A DNA stretch of 64,000 nucleotides from Escherichia coli (GTDB taxonomy: Bacteria > Pseudomonadota > Gammaproteobacteria > Enterobacterales > Enterobacteriaceae), in assembly GCF_013315695.1 (NCBI RefSeq), contig NZ_CP054353.1, one strand, 5' to 3'. A program made the translations under genes and the position numbers. Shown piece by piece: positions 1,540-55,053 of the stretch (within the stretch, counting starts at the first letter, position 1; every line of letters begins with the position of its first letter). Under the pieces are notes generated by a model, which was given only the letters and a program-made list of their open reading frames with translations, did no database searches and was not told the origin of the DNA.

Positions 1540-3387
1540 GTGTTAAACCGTTATCCTTTGTGGAAGTACGTCATGCTGATCGTGGTGATTGTCATCGGTC
1601 TGCTGTATGCGCTTCCCAACCTGTTTGGTGAGGATCCGGCTGTTCAGATCACTGGTGCGCGCGGAGTCGCCGCCAGTGAGCAAACGCTGATCCAGGTCCA
1701 GAAAACGTTACAAGAAGAAAAAATAACTGCTAAGTCTGTGGCACTGGAAGAGGGCGCTATTCTTGCGCGCTTCGACTCCACTGACACCCAGCTGCGCGCT
1801 CGTGAAGCATTAATGGGCGTTATGGGTGACAAATACGTCGTGGCGCTTAACCTTGCCCCGGCAACGCCGCGCTGGCTGGCAGCTATTCACGCTGAGCCGA
1901 TGAAGCTCGGCCTTGACCTGCGTGGCGGCGTTCACTTCCTGATGGAAGTGGATATGGACACCGCGCTTGGCAAACTCCAGGAACAAAATATCGATAGCCT
2001 GCGCAGCGACCTGCGTGAAAAGGGCATCCCGTATACCACCGTTCGTAAAGAAAACAACTACGGCCTGAGCATCACTTTCCGCGATGCTAAAGCTCGTGAT
2101 GAAGCCATTGCGTATCTGAGCAAGCGCCATCCGGACCTGGTGATTAGCAGCCAGGGCAGCAACCAGCTGCGTGCGGTAATGAGCGATGCTCGTCTGAGTG
2201 AAGCGCGTGAATATGCGGTGCAGCAGAACATTAATATCCTGCGTAACCGTGTAAACCAACTTGGCGTGGCGGAGCCGGTGGTTCAGCGTCAGGGTGCTGA
2301 CCGTATCGTTGTTGAACTGCCAGGTATTCAGGACACCGCGCGTGCGAAAGAGATTCTGGGTGCGACGGCAACGCTGGAATTCCGTCTGGTAAACACCAAC
2401 GTTGATCAGGCCGCTGCGGCATCCGGCCGCGTACCGGGCGACTCTGAAGTGAAACAGACCCGCGAAGGTCAGCCGGTTGTGCTGTACAAACGCGTAATTC
2501 TGACCGGTGACCATATCACCGACTCCACTTCCAGCCAGGACGAATACAACCAGCCGCAGGTTAACATTTCGCTCGACAGCGCAGGTGGCAACATTATGTC
2601 TAACTTCACCAAGGACAACATCGGCAAACCGATGGCGACCCTGTTTGTGGAGTACAAAGACAGCGGCAAGAAAGATGCTAACGGTCGTGCGGTTCTGGTG
2701 AAACAGGAAGAGGTGATTAACATCGCTAACATCCAGTCTCGTCTGGGTAACAGCTTCCGTATCACCGGTATTAACAACCCGAACGAAGCCCGTCAGCTTT
2801 CACTTTTGCTGCGTGCCGGTGCGTTGATCGCGCCAATTCAGATTGTTGAAGAACGTACCATTGGCCCGACTCTGGGTATGCAGAACATTGAACAGGGGCT
2901 GGAGGCTTGCCTTGCCGGTCTGCTGGTTTCTATTCTGTTTATGATCATCTTCTATAAGAAGTTTGGTCTGATTGCGACCAGTGCTTTGATTGCCAACTTG
3001 ATCTTGATCGTCGGCATTATGTCGCTGTTGCCAGGCGCAACGCTGAGTATGCCAGGTATCGCGGGTATCGTCTTAACCCTTGCGGTAGCGGTCGACGCGA
3101 ACGTACTGATCAACGAACGTATTAAAGAAGAGTTGAGCAACGGACGTACTGTTCAACAGGCAATTGATGAAGGTTATCGTGGCGCATTCAGTTCCATCTT
3201 CGATGCGAACATCACCACGCTGATTAAAGTCATCATCCTGTACGCAGTGGGTACCGGGGCAATTAAAGGGTTCGCGATTACTACCGGTATCGGTGTGGCG
3301 ACGTCGATGTTTACCGCGATTGTCGGTACGCGTGCCATCGTAAACCTGCTATATGGCGGCAAGCGCGTCAAGAAGCTGTCAATCTGA
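1540..3387 (+). CDS. secD: protein translocase subunit SecD
   Basis: 615-aa ORF, GTG start, SecD sequence and position. Confidence 0.95.
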
Positions 3388-3397
3388 GGAGTGCGAT

Positions 3398-4369
3398 GTG
3401 GCACAGGAATATACTGTTGAACAACTAAACCACGGCCGTAAAGTCTATGACTTTATGCGCTGGGACTACTGGGCTTTCGGCATCTCTGGTCTGCTGTTAA
3501 TCGCCGCTATCGTTATTATGGGCGTGCGCGGCTTTAACTGGGGGCTGGATTTCACCGGTGGTACGGTTATTGAAATTACGCTCGAAAAACCGGCTGAAAT
3601 TGACGTAATGCGTGATGCATTGCAAAAAGCCGGTTTTGAAGAGCCGATGCTGCAAAACTTTGGTAGCAGCCACGACATCATGGTCCGTATGCCGCCTGCT
3701 GAAGGCGAAACCGGCGGTCAGGTGCTGGGCAGCCAGGTTCTGAAGGTGATTAACGAATCCACCAATCAGAATGCGGCAGTGAAGCGTATTGAGTTCGTCG
3801 GTCCGAGCGTGGGGGCAGACCTTGCGCAAACCGGTGCGATGGCGTTGATGGCGGCGCTGCTGTCTATCCTCGTGTACGTAGGTTTCCGCTTTGAGTGGCG
3901 ACTGGCGGCAGGGGTTGTTATTGCGCTGGCGCACGACGTTATCATTACGCTGGGTATTTTGTCGTTATTCCATATCGAGATTGACCTGACCATTGTGGCA
4001 TCGTTGATGTCAGTTATCGGTTACTCGCTTAACGACAGTATCGTGGTATCGGACCGTATTCGTGAAAACTTCCGCAAGATCCGTCGCGGTACGCCTTACG
4101 AAATCTTTAACGTGTCCTTGACCCAGACGCTGCACCGCACCTTGATCACATCCGGTACTACCTTGATGGTTATCCTGATGCTGTACCTCTTCGGTGGTCC
4201 GGTACTGGAAGGCTTCTCGCTGACCATGCTTATCGGTGTTTCCATCGGTACTGCATCTTCCATCTACGTAGCATCGGCGCTGGCTCTGAAACTGGGTATG
4301 AAGCGCGAACACATGCTGCAGCAGAAAGTGGAAAAAGAAGGGGCGGATCAGCCGTCAATTCTGCCTTAA
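3398..4369 (+). CDS. secF: protein translocase subunit SecF
   Basis: 323-aa product starting [10 protein letters not shown] at an in-frame GTG; overlaps the end of secD. Confidence 0.93.
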
Positions 4370-4520: not shown

Positions 4521-4763
4521 ATGCGCAAAATTACCTCAGTAAGCGTTGGCGAACAATTAGATAGTTTTATTACCCGGATGGTCCAGTCTGGTCGTTATGG
4601 CTCGGCCAGTGAAGTGATGCGTTCAGCGCTTCGTCTATTGGAACAACAAGAATCCCGGGATGAAGCTGTCAGAAATGCAGTTATTGAAGGTCTTGAGAGC
4701 GGTGAAAGTTCGATGACGCTTCGTGATATCGCAGCAGAAAGGAAGCAAAAACATCGTGTATAA
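4521..4763 (+). CDS. type II antitoxin, ParD/ribbon-helix-helix family
   Basis: 80-aa product with RHH-like N-terminus and ...SASEVMRSALRLLEQQE... motif; stop overlaps the downstream toxin start by 8 nt. Confidence 0.8.
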   Translation: MRKITSVSVGEQLDSFITRMVQSGRYGSASEVMRSALRLLEQQESRDEAVRNAVIEGLESGESSMTLRDIAAERKQKHRV

Positions 4764-5037
4764 GCTTAGCGGAAAAGCTGTTGAAGATTTCAGAGGGATC
4801 TATGACTACACGCTGGGAAAGTTTGGTGAGGAGCAGGCGGATCGCTATACCGACTCTCTCGGCATTTTTTTGGATACACTCTCTCAAATGCCCGAGATTG
4901 GTCAAGACTATGATGCGATTCCAGAGGTAAAGAAGATCGCATTTAGGTTTCACACTGTTTATTACGTTATAAGAGTCGATGACATTCTCATTGCGCGCAT
5001 TCTTCATCAGCTGATGGAACCTCGCCGTCACTGGTAA
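4756..5037 (+). CDS. type II toxin, ParE/RelE family
   Basis: 93-aa product (GTG start) with ParE-like features: YKLSGKA...DF..IYDYT N-terminus, YYVIRVDDILIARILH C-terminus; start overlaps the antitoxin stop. Confidence 0.8.
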   Translation: MYKLSGKAVEDFRGIYDYTLGKFGEEQADRYTDSLGIFLDTLSQMPEIGQDYDAIPEVKKIAFRFHTVYYVIRVDDILIARILHQLMEPRRHW

Positions 5038-5509: not shown

Positions 5510-6394
5510 TTAGAAGTTGTAACCTACTACCAGGTAACCACCCCAGCCGGTAGAGCGAACGTTGAAGTTGCCGTTGCCGAAGTTCAGTTCTGCATCGTCG
5601 TTCCACTGACCACCGTCGTGCCAGTAACGAGCTACGACAGAGTAGTGCCAATGATCGTAGTTCAGAGCCAGAATATGGCTGGAAGCGATAGAGTTATTAG
5701 TACGGGTCTTAATACCGTTGATTGCGTTACCGCTGTCATCCCCTAAATCGGAACCCCAGTCGAAGTTGGTGAAGCCGATGTAGCTCAGCTGACCGCCCCA
5801 CAGATCGGTAATCGGCACAAAGTATTTAATTTTGAAACGGTAACCGTCCCACTCGTTTTCGTTCGCTGCGCCATAGTTCTGCCACTGGTATTTCGCATAG
5901 ACGTTCATGGACAGGCTCATCGGCAGGCCAGTATCGATATCGGTACCCAGACCCATGTACCAGGTGCTCTGGCGACCATCTTTATTACGACCCATGTCGT
6001 AAATGTAGTTGTTCGCGAAGTACCACTCTTTGAACGGACCAAAGCTAAGGTCAGTATTGGTCAGCTTGTCGATGGAGAAACGTGGTTCGATTTCCATAAA
6101 CAGCGGAGAACCGTGGTTCCAGATACCTTTTGCATCGGAGTTACCGCCGAAGAATACCGGCGCATCCGCATAACCATAGAAGTCGAACCAGTCTTTTTTA
6201 GCGAATGCTTCGTACTCAAGGTAGGTATCGTTGCGGATCTGCGGTCCGAAACGGGTGTGATAGCTTCCGACAACGTTAACGCTCTGGTGCCACCAGTCGG
6301 AAAGATACTGCGGTTTGTCGTTTTCAGCTGCGTTGACAGTAAAAGACGAAGAGAGCGCCAGTACCGCACCGGCTGCCAGTAATGTTTTTTTCAT
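5510..6394 (-). CDS. tsx: nucleoside-specific outer-membrane channel Tsx
   Basis: 294-aa product starting [24 protein letters not shown]; ORF track extends 16 codons further upstream. Confidence 0.95.
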
Positions 6395-7099: not shown

Positions 7100-7118
7100 T
7101 ATCCGGTGCGCCGTAAAA

Positions 7119-7138
7119 CCCCGTCCTTCAGGGCGGGG
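7119..7138 (+). repeat. left-end subterminal hairpin ccccg-tccttcaggg-cgggg
   Basis: 5-bp stem with 10-nt loop; same orientation and same loop as the right-end hairpin. Confidence 0.7.
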
Positions 7139-7159
7139 ATATAAGGCGCGGTTTTCCAC

Positions 7160-7590
7160 CTGACCAGGTGTTTGCTGTTGTTCAATGTATTGGCGGATGA
7201 CGGATATTGGCGCACCTCCGCAGCTACTGGCAAAATAGCCAGGACTCCACAAAACGCCTTTGTAGTAATACCTGACTGCAATATCTGGTCGATCTCGTCG
7301 CAGTCACCTACCCGATACGCCTTTGAGGCTGTTTACCAGACTGGATATCGCCAGTTTGGGAGGATAGTTAATTAACAAATGGACGTGATCTGGTTCGCCA
7401 TCCATTTCAACCAGTTCAGCTTCAAAATCAGCACATACATTTGAATAGTAAGTGCGTAGTTTTTCTGTCGCGTCATGGTCAAAAATCTGGCGTCGGTATT
7501 TGGGACAAAGACCAGGTGAACATGCATCAGGAAAACACAATGCCTTCCACGCCGGATATCGGTTTCTTTTTTCACAGACCAAAGTATCAT
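7160..7590 (-). pseudogene. tnpA: IS200/IS605 Y1 (HUH) transposase tnpA, inactivated by a frameshift and an in-frame TGA
   Basis: frame A gives ...HVHLVFVP, frame B gives CPKYRRQIF...DHVHLLINYPPK...LKGVSGR then TGA at 7304-7306, then WSPGYFASSCGGAPISVIRQYIEQQ in the same frame. Confidence 0.8.
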
Positions 7591-7597
7591 TTGACCT

Positions 7598-8806
7598 GTG
7601 AAACGATTACAGGCATTTAAATTCCAGTTAAGACCAGGTGGTCAACAGGAGTGTGAAATGAGGCGCTTCGCAGGCGCATGTCGTTTCGTTTTCAATCGTG
7701 CTCTGGCGCTTCAGAATGAGAATCATGAGGCCGGTAATAAATACATCCCTTACGGGAAAATGGCTTCCTGGCTGGTTGAGTGGAAAAACGCCACTGAAAT
7801 GCAATGGCTTAAAGATTCGCCCTCACAGCCATTGCAACAGTCACTGAAAGACCTTGAGCGGGCTTACAAAAACTTCTTCCAGAAGCGGGCTGCTTTTCCC
7901 CGATTCAAAAAGCGGGGACAGAATGATGCATTCCGCTACCCGCAGGGCGTTAAGCTCGATCAGGAAAACAGCCGTATTTTTCTGCCGAAACTTGGCTGGA
8001 TGCGCTACCGGAACAGCCGTCAGGTCACGGGTGTTGTGAAAAATGTCACTGTCAGCCAGTCCTGCGGTAAGTGGTACATCAGTATTCAGACAGAAAGTGA
8101 AGTATCCACTCCGGTTCACCCTTCAGCATCAATGGTCGGGCTGGATGCTGGCGTGGCTAAACTCGCCACGCTGTCAGATGGCACAGTCTTTGAGCCTGTA
8201 AACAGTTTTCAGAAAAACCAGAAGACGCTGGCGAGACTTCAGCGACAGTTAAGCCGCAAGGTCGAATTCAGCAATAACTGGCAGAAGCAGAAACGCAAAA
8301 TACAGCGACTGCATTCCCGTATCGCAAATATCCGCAGGGACTACCTTCACAAAGTCACAACGACCGTCAGCAAAAACCACGCAATGATAGTCATTGAGGA
8401 TTTGAAGGTCAGCAACATGTCAAAGTCAGCAGCGGGTACGGTCAGCCAGCCGGGGCGCAATGTCCGGGCAAAATCAGGTTTAAACCGTTCGATACTGGAT
8501 CAGGGCTGGTATGAAATGCGCCGCCAGCTTGAGTACAAGCAGCTCTGGCGTGGCGGTCAGGTGCTTGCTGTTCCGCCAGCGTACACAAGCCAGCGTTGCG
8601 CGTGCTGTGGTCATACAGCGAAAGAAAATCGCCTGTCACAAAGTAAATTCAGATGCCAGGCATGTGGATATACAGCGAACGCTGATGTAAATGGCGCTCG
8701 TAACATTTTAGCGGCGGGGCACGCCGTTCTTGCCTGTGGAGGGATGGTGCAGTCAGGCCGCCCGTTGAAGCAGGAACCCACCGAAATGATTCAGGCGACA
8801 GCCTGA
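7598..8806 (+). CDS. tnpB: IS605-family TnpB (OrfB), RuvC-like RNA-guided endonuclease family
   Basis: 402-aa ORF, GTG start; N-terminus resembles the ISDra2 TnpB N-terminus as I recall it; RuvC motifs [22 protein letters not shown] and CxxC...CxxC zinc finger all present. Confidence 0.92.
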
Positions 8807-8870
8807 ACGTAGCAGGGATCCACGTCCTTCAGGGCGTGGAGGATGTCAATGAGTTGCGTCATCTCCTGGT
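8650..8870 (+). ncRNA. predicted TnpB guide RNA (omega/right-end RNA) spanning the tnpB 3' end, the right-end hairpin and a flank-derived guide; not directly observed
   Basis: inferred from the known architecture of TnpB elements; right-end hairpin at 8820-8839 and intact tnpB upstream. Confidence 0.35.
8820..8839 (+). repeat. right-end subterminal hairpin ccacg-tccttcaggg-cgtgg
   Basis: 5-bp stem with 10-nt loop, 14 bp downstream of the tnpB stop. Confidence 0.7.
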
Positions 8871-8979
8871 TCAGTGTGCTGACGCTGTGTTTCATCTGCC
8901 GCACTTCGCTTTGCTGCACACAGGCGCTAAGGCTGAACAGGCTTCCCAGCAGGAGCAGTCGAAAAACGTTAGTATTCAT
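8851..8979 (-). pseudogene. yajI: yajI lipoprotein gene, 5' (N-terminal) fragment with signal peptide and lipobox
   Basis: ATG at 8979 then MNTNVFRLLLLGSLFSLSAC (lipobox LSAC); frame runs into the IS right end. Confidence 0.75.
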
Positions 8980-24066: not shown

Positions 24067-24609
24067 CTAAGCCGCGAGAATATGCTGAATCGCTAAAAAC
24101 ATCGGTACAGCACCGAAAACATTGGGCCTCGCTGAAAGCTGAACAAAGCCGAGGCGAGTATAAAAGTTAATGGCGGCAGGGTCAGCATCAAGATAAACCC
24201 CTTTAATTGGTAATGCACGGTGAATTATTTTTACATGTTCAAAAAAATCACATAGTAGGTCCTGACCAAAGCCCCGCTTTTGATATTTCCGCGCTACCCC
24301 TAACATGACTAATCTGACAACACCAATCTCTGAAGGTTGTGAACCCTGAAGGACGCCAGAAACGCGTTGTTTTTCCAGCGAATATGCCGTAAAAGTACAG
24401 ATGCCAATCAGTTCACCACTTTGTCTGTCAATAAGAGCTTTAGCAGCACAGTCGCTATTACGCACACTTTTCTTTAGCGATGCGCGTACAAATTTATCGA
24501 TAACAGGGTTACCGCAATCAAACTGTTTTTGCCCAGGATAAGTAATATCAGACTGATAATTACAGGAGAGGACTATGGGCAGAGTAATCTCTTCATGCTT
24601 GTCGACCAT
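24067..24609 (-). CDS. GNAT-family acetyltransferase toxin (TacT/AtaT/ItaT-like) of a type II toxin-antitoxin pair
   Basis: 180-aa ORF with FDCG motif near the N-terminus and acetyl-CoA-binding motif QKRGFGQDLL; start overlaps the stop of the upstream antitoxin gene. Confidence 0.75.
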   Translation of the reverse strand: MVDKHEEITLPIVLSCNYQSDITYPGQKQFDCGNPVIDKFVRASLKKSVRNSDCAAKALIDRQSGELIGICTFTAYSLEKQRVSGVLQGSQPSEIGVVRLVMLGVARKYQKRGFGQDLLCDFFEHVKIIHRALPIKGVYLDADPAAINFYTRLGFVQLSARPNVFGAVPMFLAIQHILAA

Positions 24610-24904
24610 CGCTGTTTTTCCTTTTCATTAACGCCTTGAGGGCGAGCGTCGGTTGAGCAGGTTCAGCGATGAGTTGGTTCATCAGTTCCCAGCTTTGATT
24701 CGAAAGCTCACGGCGACGTTGGTTATCAAGCACACTTTCGGCGCGTTCCATAGCTGCGCTCAAAATAAAAGCGCTTAAATCTACCCCAACGGCTTGCGCA
24801 GCTTCACGAAGTTTGTTTTTGGCGTCGGGACTGGTTTTGAGTTCAACCCGCGCATTTTTCAGCGTTTTATCGATATCGGGTAGAGCGACTGTTTTTCCAG
24901 GCAT
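24593..24904 (-). CDS. DUF1778/ribbon-helix-helix antitoxin (TacA/AtaR-like) partner of the GNAT toxin
   Basis: 103-aa product from ATG at 24904 with AAGAGG ribosome-binding site; RHH-like N-terminus; 17-nt overlap with the toxin gene. Confidence 0.7.
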   Translation of the reverse strand: MPGKTVALPDIDKTLKNARVELKTSPDAKNKLREAAQAVGVDLSAFILSAAMERAESVLDNQRRRELSNQSWELMNQLIAEPAQPTLALKALMKRKNSDGRQA

Positions 24905-40188: not shown

Positions 40189-42640
<2,452 letters not shown>

Positions 42641-42693
42641 TGACCTCTGTACTTATAACAGTTTTTATAAAAACAACGTAAGGTTATTGCGCT

Positions 42694-43110
42694 ATGCAAA
42701 CACAAATCAAAGTTCGTGGATATCATCTCGACGTTTACCAGCACGTAAACAACGCCCGCTACCTTGAATTTCTCGAAGAAGCCCGCTGGGATGGGTTGGA
42801 AAATAGCGACAGTTTTCACTGGATGACGGCCCATAACATCGCTTTCGTGGTGGTGAATATCAATATTAACTATCGTCGCCCGGCGGTATTAAGCGACTTG
42901 TTAACCATTACGAGCCAGTTACAGCAATTAAACGGTAAAAGCGGCATCTTAAGCCAGGTCATTACACTGGAGCCGGAAGGGCAGGTAGTAGCGGATGCGC
43001 TTATTACGTTTGTTTGTATTGATCTTAAAACGCAGAAAGCATTAGCTCTGGAAGGAGAATTGCGCGAAAAGCTGGAGCAGATGGTTAAGGTGATGCTGCC
43101 AACTTACTGA
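42694..43110 (+). CDS. fadM: long-chain acyl-CoA thioesterase FadM with 6-codon C-terminal extension read into IS1
   Basis: 138-aa ORF; first 132 aa end ...LEQMVK; final VMLPTY* is encoded by the IS1 left end. Confidence 0.88.
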   Translation: MQTQIKVRGYHLDVYQHVNNARYLEFLEEARWDGLENSDSFHWMTAHNIAFVVVNININYRRPAVLSDLLTITSQLQQLNGKSGILSQVITLEPEGQVVADALITFVCIDLKTQKALALEGELREKLEQMVKVMLPTY

Positions 43111-43143
43111 TTTAGTGTATGATGGTGTTTTTGAGGTGCTCCA

Positions 43144-43419
43144 GTGGCTTCTGTTTCTATCAGCTGTCCCTCCTGTTCAGCTACTGACGGGGTGGTGCGT
43201 AACGGCAAAAGCACCGCCGGACATCAGCGCTATCTCTGCTCTCACTGCCGTAAAACATGGCAACTGCAGTTCACTTACACCGCTTCTCAACCCGGTACGC
43301 ACCAGAAAATCATTGATATGGCCATGAATGGCGTTGGATGCCGGGCAACAGCCCGCATTATGGGCGTTGGCCTCAACACGATTTTACGTCACTTAAAAAA
43401 CTCAGGCCGCAGTCGGTAA
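43144..43419 (+). CDS. insA: IS1 InsA (transposition repressor / N-terminal part of the transposase)
   Basis: 91-aa product [40 protein letters not shown]... Confidence 0.95.
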
Positions 43420-43841
43420 CCTCGCGCATACAGCCGGGCAGTGACGTCATCGTCTGCGCGGAAATGGACGAACAGTGGGGCTATGTCGGGGCTAAATCGC
43501 GCCAGCGCTGGCTGTTTTACGCGTATGACAGGCTCCGGAAGACGGTTGTTGCGCACGTATTCGGTGAACGCACTATGGCGACGCTGGGGCGTCTTATGAG
43601 CCTGCTGTCACCCTTTGACGTGGTGATATGGATGACGGATGGCTGGCCGCTGTATGAATCCCGCCTGAAGGGAAAGCTGCACGTAATCAGCAAGCGATAT
43701 ACGCAGCGAATTGAGCGGCATAACCTGAATCTGAGGCAGCACCTGGCACGGCTGGGACGGAAGTCGCTGTCGTTCTCAAAATCGGTGGAGCTGCATGACA
43801 AAGTCATCGGGCATTATCTGAACATAAAACACTATCAATAA
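43338..43841 (+). CDS. insB: IS1 insB reading frame, expressed as InsAB' transposase by -1 frameshifting
   Basis: 167-aa frame carrying the InsB sequence; lies in the -1 frame relative to insA. Confidence 0.85.
43393..43401 (+). promoter_or_regulatory. IS1 programmed -1 ribosomal frameshift site (A6C slippery motif)
   Basis: ttaaaaaac within the insA/insB overlap. Confidence 0.8.
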
Positions 43842-43876
43842 GTTGGAGTCATTACCGATGGTTAAGTAAACGTTTT

Positions 43877-43906
43877 GTGGTGCCGGATGCTCAAGCCGCA
43901 TCCGGC
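43877..43906. terminator. REP-like hairpin between fadM/IS1 and convergent queC
   Basis: perfect inverted repeat gccggatgc / gcatccggc with 6-nt loop. Confidence 0.5.
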
Positions 43907-43920
43907 GACACCCGGAATAA

Positions 43921-44616
43921 TTAATTCAACCCGGTTTTCTGCTTCATCGCTGCCATCACCGTCGGTTTATCGGCCAGATAATGATTCAAACCGTTGGCAC
44001 GTAAATTACACGCCGCACAATGACCGCAACCGTCGCCTTTAATGCCGTTATAACAGGTCAGCGTTTCGTTACGGACTAAATCCAGCTTGCCGTAATAATC
44101 TGCCAGCGCCCAGGTTTCCGCTTTATCAATCCACATCAGCGGCGTTTCAAAACGAATATCTTTCGCCATGCCCAAACTGACGGCATGGTTTAGTGCTTTC
44201 ACAAACTCATCGCGGCAATCCGGGTAGCCGGAGAAATCCGTTTCGCAGACGCCGGTAATTACGGCTTCTGCTTTTACCTGATACGCATATATTGCCGCCA
44301 GCGTCAGGAACAAAATATTACGCCCAGGGACAAACGTATTCGGGATGCCATCGGCTTCAGGTTCATAATCAGGCACCGGAATGCTGTCACGCGTCAGGCT
44401 GCTGACCGCCAGCTCGTTGAGCAGCGTTACATCAAGAACCTTATGCGCGCGTGCTCCCAGTTTCAGCGCCAGTTCGCGTGCCACGTCGATTTCTGCGCGA
44501 TGTCGCTGACCGTAATCGAACGTCACGCAATGGACTTCATCATATTGTTGTAATGCCTGCACCAGACAGGTGGTGGAATCCTGGCCTCCACTGAACACAA
44601 CGACAGCACGTTTCAT
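43921..44616 (-). CDS. queC: 7-cyano-7-deazaguanine synthase
   Basis: 231-aa ORF, PP-loop SGGQDS, C-terminal zinc cysteines. Confidence 0.95.
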
Positions 44617-44680
44617 AGATAATCCTGCTTGAACAATAAAAGCGTTATGGTAACGCCTGCGATGAACCCGGACCAGCTAT

Positions 44681-46381
44681 TCATTGCGACGGCGCGGGAA
44701 GCCAGGCTTCGGTAAATTCAAACCAGCCTCGCGGTGTCAGTCGCACACCGTTCACGCCGGGAGGGGCGCTAATGCGATAGTGATAGTTGAACAGCGGCGT
44801 CAGCGTCGCATCTGCCATTAACTGGCTAAAAACCGCTTTCAGGGCATTAAATCGGTTTTCCTCATCAGGCATTACTTGCACCGCGTCCAGTGTCGATTGC
44901 AAATGTGCATATGCTGGAGCGTCGAAAACATGTGGCCATAGTGGATCGCAACGCAGCCATTGCTCCAGGGTATATTCCGGTGCTTCGCCAATTAATCTGT
45001 CGCCCATCATGAGGTCTGCGTGTGCCAGTAGGGTCGTGTCGTCCCAGTTTTTTGCGTTATGAAAAATAATTGTGAGTTCACAGCCTTCCGCTGCCAGTGT
45101 CGCCTGTAGACGTTCTGCCATGGTATGAAGTTCTATCGGTAGGTGATAAACCAGCGTCAAGGTTTTCGGTAGTTTGACCTCATCCGGTACTTGCCATTGC
45201 GGAATAGTCCAGCCTGGCAGTAATGCATTACTGGCGGTGATCAGGTTTTCTCCGACTTCTAACGTTTGTAATAAACCGGATTGATGAATAATGGAGATCA
45301 CTTTTCGCGCCTGCCAGAGGGACAGTCGGGGACTTTTGCGCAACGTTAAATAGCAAAAACCTAAACTGATGCCACTACTGACCTGGCTGACCCGTTGCAG
45401 CTCCTCCGGTTTGCCGATGGTGATTTGCACGGGATGCCGACAACTGGTTCCCAAATCTTTTTCGAAAAGCGGCGGAGTTATCCAGTACTCAACCGCTTTA
45501 AGCAGCGGATGACGTAAATGGTAATAATCATGGCTTTCCAGGCGCACCAGCTCCGCTGTGAATTGTGTTAAGCGAAAAGGACCCGTGCCGATCAGTGGGA
45601 ATTGCGGATGCGCCAGATGGCTGCAATAGCTCGCCAGTCGGTGCGCAAGCCAGTAATCGGGGCGATGTAAAAAGAAGGTCAGACACTGCGGATGGGTGAC
45701 TTCAATACGCTTCACGCTAATAAATAATTGATCCAGTGCTGGCAGTTGTAACAGCAGCAATAATCGCTGGTGTAAGTGTGAGGCTTTTACTGCATCGCCG
45801 TTATGCCAGTGTAGGGTTGAACGAAGATAAAAGTCCCAGCGTAACCCGTCAGTAGAGGTTTCCCAGTGATGTGCTAAATCGCCAATCGGGCGCTGAGTAT
45901 TATTATCGAAGCGGGTCAGGCCGGAAAATATCTGCCCGGCCAGATGCTGCTCGGCACGGCCGGGCAAAAAGCCCGGTTGTAGCGGTTCGAGCGGGCGATA
46001 GTAGGGAATACGCAACGTGGGCGTATCGTTTTGCCATTGTCCGCCCATAAACGGCTGTAACAGAGTGCGCAGCTCACCTGGGGCCAGTTGCGCCAGCTCC
46101 AGCACATCTTGCTGCTTTCCGGTTTCCAGTGCCTGTTCCATCATCGCATTGCGTAGCGATTCTGGCGTGACCAGAAAGCGTAATTGTCCGCGCTTTCCGC
46201 GTCCTGACTGCGCCTGCCACTCCAGCCATCCCGCCTCCTGTGCCTGACGCAACAGCGTACGAACATGGCGTTCGCTGCAAAAACAGCGTTCGGCCAGTTC
46301 GCTGACGGTGACGGTTTGCGGCTTTCCGGCGGAAGGTTGCCACAGACGTTGATACTGGTTAAGACGGTTGAGCAGTCGCAT
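44681..46381 (-). CDS. ybaE: putative ABC-transporter periplasmic substrate-binding-like protein YbaE
   Basis: 566-aa product from ATG at 46381 (start MRLLNRLNQYQRLWQ); track ORF begins 5 codons earlier. Confidence 0.88.
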   Translation of the reverse strand: MRLLNRLNQYQRLWQPSAGKPQTVTVSELAERCFCSERHVRTLLRQAQEAGWLEWQAQSGRGKRGQLRFLVTPESLRNAMMEQALETGKQQDVLELAQLAPGELRTLLQPFMGGQWQNDTPTLRIPYYRPLEPLQPGFLPGRAEQHLAGQIFSGLTRFDNNTQRPIGDLAHHWETSTDGLRWDFYLRSTLHWHNGDAVKASHLHQRLLLLLQLPALDQLFISVKRIEVTHPQCLTFFLHRPDYWLAHRLASYCSHLAHPQFPLIGTGPFRLTQFTAELVRLESHDYYHLRHPLLKAVEYWITPPLFEKDLGTSCRHPVQITIGKPEELQRVSQVSSGISLGFCYLTLRKSPRLSLWQARKVISIIHQSGLLQTLEVGENLITASNALLPGWTIPQWQVPDEVKLPKTLTLVYHLPIELHTMAERLQATLAAEGCELTIIFHNAKNWDDTTLLAHADLMMGDRLIGEAPEYTLEQWLRCDPLWPHVFDAPAYAHLQSTLDAVQVMPDEENRFNALKAVFSQLMADATLTPLFNYHYRISAPPGVNGVRLTPRGWFEFTEAWLPAPSQ

Positions 46382-55027: not shown

Positions 55028-55053
55028 TAACCCTCTCCGCCCGGAGAGGGTTA
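55028..55053. terminator. hairpin between convergent ybaY and atl
   Basis: perfect stem aaccctctccg / cggagagggtt. Confidence 0.5.

Follow-up and report, generated by a model that had tools for sequence, protein, structure and literature searches.

IS1 transposase makes staggered cuts 9 bp apart in its target, and their repair produces a target duplication. The closest known relatives of the IS1 copy considered here are IS1A and IS1E of Escherichia coli K-12, which are consensus IS1 elements classed as type I (PMC12428005). They share with this copy the same 768 bp, the inverted repeats, insA, the A6C motif, insB' and the 9-bp length of the duplication, and they differ from it in one base (position 444) and in chromosomal location. 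When transcription enters IS1 from upstream, both insAB' transcription and transposition go up, and identical copies differ in activity depending on their flanks (PMC12428005). The copy of IS1E inside yrhA illustrates this: in that context its insAB' transcription and transposition lie above those of the identical IS1A (PMC12428005). The literature on read-through is contradictory, however, since this stimulatory effect stands against a repressive one announced by Machida et al. 1983 (among the references of PMC12428005), whose title has read-through from flanking regions repressing IS1 cointegration. The copy described below resembles IS1E in yrhA in that it is also co-directional with, and downstream of, host promoters with no terminator between. 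In contrast to IS1E, its upstream gene is the FadR-regulated fadM, and the reading frame of that gene is kept.

The window analysed here is a 64,000-nucleotide stretch of an E. coli contig (NZ_CP054353.1, assembly GCF_013315695.1). Positions 43089-43856 hold a complete IS1 of exactly 768 bp and of the IS1A/consensus type, with insA co-directional with fadM. The features of the locus are as follows.

42623-42639, minus strand: FadR-box-like site AACTGGTATGACCTCTT upstream of fadM, a 14/17 match to a FadR consensus.
42694-43110, plus strand: fadM open reading frame, 138 aa / 417 nt, from the ORF list and its translation, ending in a new TGA stop (43108-43110) that lies in the left inverted repeat.
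43080-43088, no strand: left copy of the target-site duplication GATGGTTAA, running from the third base of codon 129 through codons 130-131 to the second base of the Lys132 codon.
43089-43111, plus strand: IRL, the left terminal inverted repeat of IS1, found by its end pattern.
43096-43123, plus strand: sigma-70-like promoter match (CTGCCA, 16-nt spacer, TATGAT) from a consensus scan, overlapping IRL.
43144-43419, plus strand: insA, 91 aa with a GTG start, matching Pfam Zn_ribbon_InsA and HTH_Tnp_IS1.
43338-43841, plus strand: insB' reading frame, matching Pfam DDE_Tnp_IS1 with E = 2.3e-78 over the full profile.
43393-43401, plus strand: A6C programmed -1 frameshift motif TTAAAAAAC.
43834-43856, minus strand: IRR, the right terminal inverted repeat of IS1, found by its end pattern.
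43857-43865, no strand: right copy of the target-site duplication GATGGTTAA.
43866-43869, plus strand: orphaned G, the third base of the original Lys132 codon, and after it the native fadM stop TAA (43867-43869), from frame analysis and reconstruction.
43872-43918, no strand: REP-like hairpin in the intergenic space where fadM and queC converge, with a perfect 9-bp stem GCCGGATGC/GCATCCGGC at 43882-43906 and a 7-nt loop.
43921-44616, minus strand: queC, oriented towards fadM and not altered by the insertion, matching Pfam QueC with E = 3e-83.

Structurally, the element carries the expected parts of IS1. It ends in 23-bp imperfect terminal inverted repeats, GGTGATGCTGCCAACTTACTGAT (IRL) and GGTAATGACTCCAACTTATTGAT (IRR), both beginning GGT, and the end pattern finds 2 matches in the 64-kb window, namely these two repeats, where 0 are expected. 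End-to-end alignment with IS1A of K-12 MG1655 gives 767 identical bases out of 768; the element had been called complete in the initial annotation, and comparison with this reference revealed no truncation. The sole difference lies at position 444, with G here and T in MG1655, and it changes one InsB' residue from Ser to Arg in the stretch ...YAYD-S/R-LRK.... In the computed translation, a -1 shift at TTAAAAAAC yields an uninterrupted InsAB' of 232 aa, and PGAP places the label 'programmed frameshift' on the matching IS1 gene in related genomes. The sigma-70-like match at 43096-43123 occupies what we take to be the expected place of IS1's own insA promoter. The promoter scan of 42560-44000, which is weak when taken alone, gave 1 promoter-like site, where shuffled sequence gave 1.9 on average. 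Read inward, IRL contains stops in all three frames within 27 nt, after 8, 6 or 0 codons. All the defining features of IS1 that can be read from a sequence are present, and the copy is a standard, apparently active-type element with every part intact.

The two ends of IS1 are abutted by a perfect 9-bp direct repeat, as the initial annotation had reported; a 9-bp match at that fixed position would arise by chance with a probability of about 4e-6. A repeat-finder gives 10 bp instead, because the first base of IS1 is a G, the same base that follows the right-hand copy. In the fadM frame the left junction reads cag atg gtt aa-G gtg atg ctg cca act tac tga, and the right junction reads g atg gtt aag taa. 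This places the insertion point inside the last sense codon, AAG, a single base before the native fadM stop. The element had been described as sitting exactly at the stop codon, but the insertion point is not in that codon; nor does the duplication include the first two bases of the stop, as had also been claimed, since its final AA is the start of the Lys132 codon AAG and the TAA follows separately. The native end of the gene, ...ATGGTTAAGTAA, is present in strain MS 21-1 and in K-12, with the same hairpin following it in K-12.

The insertion extends the predicted protein at its C-terminus. The reconstructed, uninterrupted fadM encodes 132 aa, and the 138-aa product consists of these native 132 residues plus VMLPTY, so that it ends ...EQMVK-VMLPTY, the tail being read from IS1 bases 2-19. 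Lys132 is kept because IS1 starts with G, which restores AA to AAG, and the tail is limited to six residues because IRL holds stops in every frame. This extended product had been predicted beforehand; translation bears it out, and so does PGAP, which in the carrier genome MSB1_4I annotates a 138-aa FadM (WP_001571026.1) adjoining an 'IS1A family transposase'. FadM matches Pfam 4HBT_2 with E = 6e-20, its residues 1-132 differ from PDB 1NJK (YbaW) by one substitution, and fadM lies between ybaV and queC in the same gene order as in K-12. By these comparisons the gene is assigned to FadM, thioesterase III, with a 4HBT hotdog fold. The six-residue tail is probably tolerated, by analogy with the YbaW construct crystallised as 1NJK, which has two extra C-terminal residues of its own, and in view of the retention of all native residues. 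Upstream, the FadR-box-like match is the only one in the window, against 0.08 expected with the consensus used; it is a putative FadR site and suggests that the fatty-acid-responsive promoter region of fadM is intact. The fadM gene is under FadR repression, and long-chain fatty acids induce it (PMC9329746, PMC4259882).

Comparison with other genomes provides the empty site. When IS1 and one copy of the repeat are deleted from the window, the resulting 433-bp sequence is 100% identical to that of strain MS 21-1, the nearest named relative at the locus, followed by CE10 and IAI39 at 99.3%. When the window is aligned by BLAST to 50 kb of MS 21-1, the alignment is interrupted exactly at 43089 and 43857, and the subject segments overlap by 10 bp. 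The uninterrupted fadM-queC site occurs in 5420 of 5426 complete E. coli genomes. The remaining 6 comprise 2 clonal carriers, 1 low-quality assembly (P276M), 1 record with less than 80% coverage, which was left out of the examination, and 2 without a match. P276M was considered as a possible second rearrangement at the hairpin (45% coverage) and discarded, its locus being full of frameshifted pseudogenes and the assembly error-prone.

The 2 carriers among the 5426 complete RefSeq genomes are MSB1_4I (Australia, rectal swab) and AF3 (UK, blood). Beyond complete genomes, the exact 138-aa FadM is found on 344 contigs, in 740 index blocks, across NCBI, ENA, JGI and Logan assemblies. Left and right junctions are identical in all eight carrier loci examined (MSB1_4I, AF3 and six further assemblies), the older draft scaffolds among them having N-gaps only inside IS1, and the 5.5-kb flanks show 0-1 substitution relative to the window in every carrier examined. 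Over the full 64 kb, the window and MSB1_4I differ at 21 positions, 17 of them in an unrelated IS605-family element and 4 in the roughly 62 kb elsewhere; the window and the non-carrier MS 21-1 show 20 differences in 48.6 kb. A 6-bp length difference in ybaV among carriers was rejected as a phylogenetic marker, for it reflects (CCCTGT)2 versus (CCCTGT)3 in a tandem repeat that is prone to slippage and recurrent change.

The IS1 copies themselves are equally uniform. The window copy is 100% identical to the copy in MSB1_4I, to both copies at the AF3 locus and to the copies in three further closed carrier assemblies. The exact variant is also carried, at 100% identity, by many plasmids from Escherichia, Klebsiella, Salmonella and Citrobacter: among 5000 scored plasmid records, 4971 reach 99% identity or more to it, and the best 15 plasmid copies listed are 100% identical. 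Both complete carriers contain at least 40 IS1-matching places each, compared with a median of 10 per genome.

Collectively, the simplest history would be one insertion event that followed the divergence from the MS 21-1 branch and predated the carriers' common ancestor. The insertion is evolutionarily young, because the site is empty and otherwise identical in the close relative MS 21-1 and because the IS1 copies are 100% identical. As a rough figure, commonly assumed E. coli clock rates give an age of decades to centuries. The initial annotation had called the insertion recent on the grounds that its duplication is perfect. That logic is weak: the perfect 9-bp repeat is uninformative on age because its 18 bases would be expected to stay the same for a very long time, far beyond decades to centuries. 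Youth itself survives on the other evidence, the empty MS 21-1 site and the identical IS1 copies, and the idea of a fresh event private to one strain does not, given the 344 contigs. The event is of an ordinary kind and already catalogued, since RefSeq annotates both the IS1 and the 138-aa FadM. Literature searches returned, within the library covered, no paper pairing fadM with IS1; they found MSB1_4I named only in an unrelated Salmonella paper and no account of the phylogroup of MS 21-1.

The hairpin beyond the insertion resembles REP elements in several respects. It shares with them a GC-rich palindrome with a GCCGGATGCGGC head, an extragenic location and a distance of 12-14 nt from both stop codons; its stem starts 12 nt past the native fadM stop and lies 14 nt from the queC stop. 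It differs from a classical REP in its shorter stem of 9 perfect pairs and in its 13/14 match to the REP head consensus GCC(G/T)GATGCG(G/A)CG(C/T), a consensus that is matched on the minus (queC-sense) strand only. The fold energy is -23.9 kcal/mol on the plus strand (z = -3.6) and -21.9 kcal/mol on the minus strand (z = -2.9), and the hairpin is identical in K-12. Within the 64-kb window, a second copy of this form was not found. An Rfam scan of 42500-44700 at E <= 1 returned no RNA family, so that the hairpin is not a curated RNA. The RefSeq annotation of MG1655 lacks REP features altogether; it lists none at the hairpin, an absence that is uninformative, as it likewise has none at the control position, about 5565-5669 in K-12, where we presume REP1 to lie.

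A role for the hairpin as a Rho-independent terminator of fadM is unsupported. The GC-rich stem-loop is present, but no U-tract follows the stem on either strand, the plus strand continuing with GACACCCGGAAT and the minus strand with ACCACAAAACG, and the terminator scan did not report the hairpin at 43882-43906. Of the earlier proposal that a REP-like hairpin probably terminates fadM, the REP likeness is retained and the termination lacks support. The claim that the insertion separates fadM from this hairpin is borne out, with 777 bp now placed between the end of the fadM coding sequence and the hairpin. The queC gene, unlike fadM, keeps its stop-proximal hairpin, and QueC WP_000817228.1 is annotated in both complete carriers and in the non-carrier. 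REPs reportedly reduce the translation of an upstream gene only if they lie less than 16 nt from its stop codon (Liang et al. 2015, as summarised in PMC12306157). Neither fadM nor queC is mentioned in the accessible parts of the REP survey's text and supplements. As a whole, the earlier description of the locus is largely correct, apart from one codon-level error, an unsupported claim of termination and a weak argument for recency.

We consider it highly probable that the locus records a single ordinary IS1 transposition into the last sense codon of fadM, near-neutral in effect and spread with an IS1-rich clone. The transposase would have made cuts staggered by 9 bp, and repair would have duplicated GATGGTTAA. 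This would have happened once, in an IS1-rich clone related to MS 21-1, and the insertion would then have been inherited by the hundreds of isolates sequenced. Most probably it did little harm and hitchhiked with the clone without being selected itself, although its presence in hundreds of isolates is equally expected under selection.

What the insertion does to expression, FadM activity and transposition we infer from the sequence. On the plus strand, no terminator-like site lies between the new fadM stop (43110) and the insA start (43144), which are 33 nt apart. Because such a site is missing there, fadM transcripts from the FadR-controlled promoter would be expected to run on into IS1 and would no longer end near the REP-like hairpin. 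Read-through over IRL and insA could alter the output of transposase and InsA from this copy. It could increase insA and insAB' transcription, as with K-12 IS1 copies whose upstream flanks are transcribed (PMC12428005), or it could disturb the left end, in line with the title of Machida et al. 1983. The fadM stop would also no longer be within 16 nt of the hairpin. One speculative combination of these consequences, which we regard as a long shot, is that an IS1 behind the FadR-controlled fadM promoter would tie its transposase to fatty-acid availability and act as a condition-dependent donor for the IS1 expansion of the clone, while fadM translation would be freed from the stop-proximal REP-like hairpin.

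Other explanations account for parts of the same evidence. Selection through fadM itself, in which a stop moved away from the REP-like hairpin, a new 3' UTR or a hydrophobic tail alters FadM abundance or stability, is unlikely. It draws on the position of the native hairpin 12 nt after the fadM stop, a distance at which REPs reportedly lower translation (PMC12306157, in summary), yet this hairpin is REP-like rather than classical, with a 9-bp stem and a 13/14 REP head on the opposite strand, and the accessible REP survey material is silent on fadM and queC. The hundreds of contigs that carry the insertion would suit selection, but the spread of a successful clone explains that frequency without it. 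The second hit to fadM in AF3 can also be read as a sign of selection on the gene, yet this hit destroys fadM and so speaks against any advantage of a modified FadM. A reading centred on IS1, in which the copy behind a fatty-acid-inducible promoter became a highly expressed donor and helped the IS1 expansion of the lineage, appears decidedly improbable. It is consistent with the co-directional insA 33 nt past the new stop with no terminator-like plus-strand site between, with the reported increase of transposase transcription and transposition by upstream transcription (PMC12428005), with the 40 or more IS1-matching places in carriers against a median of 10, and with the gain of an identical copy 1.1 kb away in AF3. 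Against it, the compared copies are all identical to one another and to the commonest plasmid form, so that the source copy is not identifiable; the title of Machida et al. 1983 has read-through repressing IS1 activity; and read-through would raise InsA, the repressor, too.

Two further readings concern whether the insertion is real and whether it happened once. An error of repeat resolution that placed IS1 here during assembly would be conceivable in genomes with so many IS1 copies, a known source of assembler trouble, but both junctions are identical in eight independent assemblies that include closed chromosomes and older scaffolds, and the perfect 9-bp duplication together with the exact empty site is a signature of transposition; an artefact is accordingly almost inconceivable. 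Independent hits on several carriers at an IS1 hotspot are very improbable. The two IS1 insertions within 1.1 kb in AF3 would fit such a hotspot, whereas the carriers share position, orientation, duplication and near-identical flanks, and among the 5426 complete genomes IS1 is found here only in the two clonal carriers, the other four exceptions being the low-quality assembly, the record with less than 80% coverage and the two without a match. Nor did the junction turn up in an unrelated phylogroup or beside clearly divergent flanking haplotypes among the carriers examined, which also counts against a hotspot. The single near-neutral transposition that we favour has little significance beyond bookkeeping; it would gain more if the fadM promoter drove IS1 transposition or if uncoupling from the hairpin altered FadM output. 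In practical terms, the insertion can serve as a handy marker, by PCR or in silico, of one E. coli clone, and it explains the 138-aa FadM variant in RefSeq. It also offers a natural example of how stop codons within the end of IS1 limit the damage from an insertion near the end of a gene.

A separate observation concerns AF3. In this genome a second, identical IS1 lies in the same orientation inside codon 14 of fadM, flanked by a separate 9-bp duplication, CTCGACGTT. It disrupts the gene, and two direct IS1 copies, 1.1 kb apart, flank the remaining 362 bp of the gene. This second copy indicates that fadM is dispensable in this background and that IS1 is still moving in the clone. It could hint that loss of fadM is tolerated or even favoured there, which fits neutrality or selection. 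As in Tn9-type composite transposons, identical direct copies of IS1 flank a gene segment in AF3. In contrast to Tn9-type elements, the window has one IS1 copy only, and the composite-transposon-like arrangement of AF3 encloses a truncated gene. Recombination between the direct IS1 copies in AF3 could delete fadM.

Isolate AF3 carries a second IS1 in fadM (NZ_OZ547117.1 locus, positions 2070-2837), close to the IS1 shared by the carriers at the fadM 3' end (3200-3967 on the same locus). The two AF3 copies are 100% identical and lie in the same orientation, and the second has a 9-bp duplication of its own, CTCGACGTT. This insertion breaks the AF3 fadM after codon 14 and leaves 362 bp of the gene between two direct IS1 copies, which is a composite-transposon-like arrangement and a potential deletion substrate. 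PGAP nonetheless annotates a 129-aa 'FadM' in the disrupted gene, with its start inside the IS1 end.

In MS 21-1, a close relative with an uninterrupted fadM site, an IS4 lies between the MGMT-family gene and ybaY, whereas the window has no IS4 there. The two branches of the clone can thus be distinguished by reciprocal IS insertions. At this site the BLAST segments of the window against MS 21-1 share 12 bp of window sequence, which fits a target duplication made by IS4. Coordinates for this IS4 insertion, and for a separate IS200/IS605-family element in the window, are:

MS 21-1 locus (L016) 7542-8888, annotated IS4 transposase gene
Window 55035-55046, empty IS4 site
Window 7104-8850, IS200/IS605-family element, interrupting a DUF3251-domain gene
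Window 7166-7590, tnpA pseudogene of this element
Window 7598-8806, tnpB of this element

The window and the carrier MSB1_4I differ at 21 positions over 64 kb, and 17 of these fall within the IS200/IS605-family element. This clustering points to paralogous copies having exchanged sequence, or to a difference in assembly, more than to point mutations of the ordinary kind. In strain P276M, the lon-ppiD-fadM-queC-ybaE region (NZ_CP044293.1) is full of frameshifted and partial genes although the genome is designated 'complete', and no recognisable fadM was found in it; this state looks like uncorrected long-read assembly, not biology.

A REP-like hairpin (window 43872-43918) lies between two convergent genes and within 16 nt of the stop codon of each: 12 nt separate it from the native stop of fadM, and 14 nt from the stop of queC. 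At such stop-proximal distances (<16 nt), REPs are reported to lower translation of the upstream gene (Liang et al. 2015, as summarised in PMC12306157).

The signal-peptide region of ybaV contains a tandem CCCTGT hexamer (window 42241-42258), with three copies in the window, MSB1_4I and MS 21-1 and two in K-12, AF3 and CM127771.1, so that YbaV has 125 or 123 aa, respectively. The length difference looks like repeat slippage, and copy number varies even between IS1 carriers.

Annotation of the matching MSB1_4I record also places two small toxin-antitoxin-like gene pairs in the window, both presumably absent from the K-12 gene order at these positions:

Window 4521-5037, ParD and RelE/ParE pair, between yajD and secF
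Window 24067-24904, DUF1778 and GNAT acetyltransferase pair, adjoining cyoE
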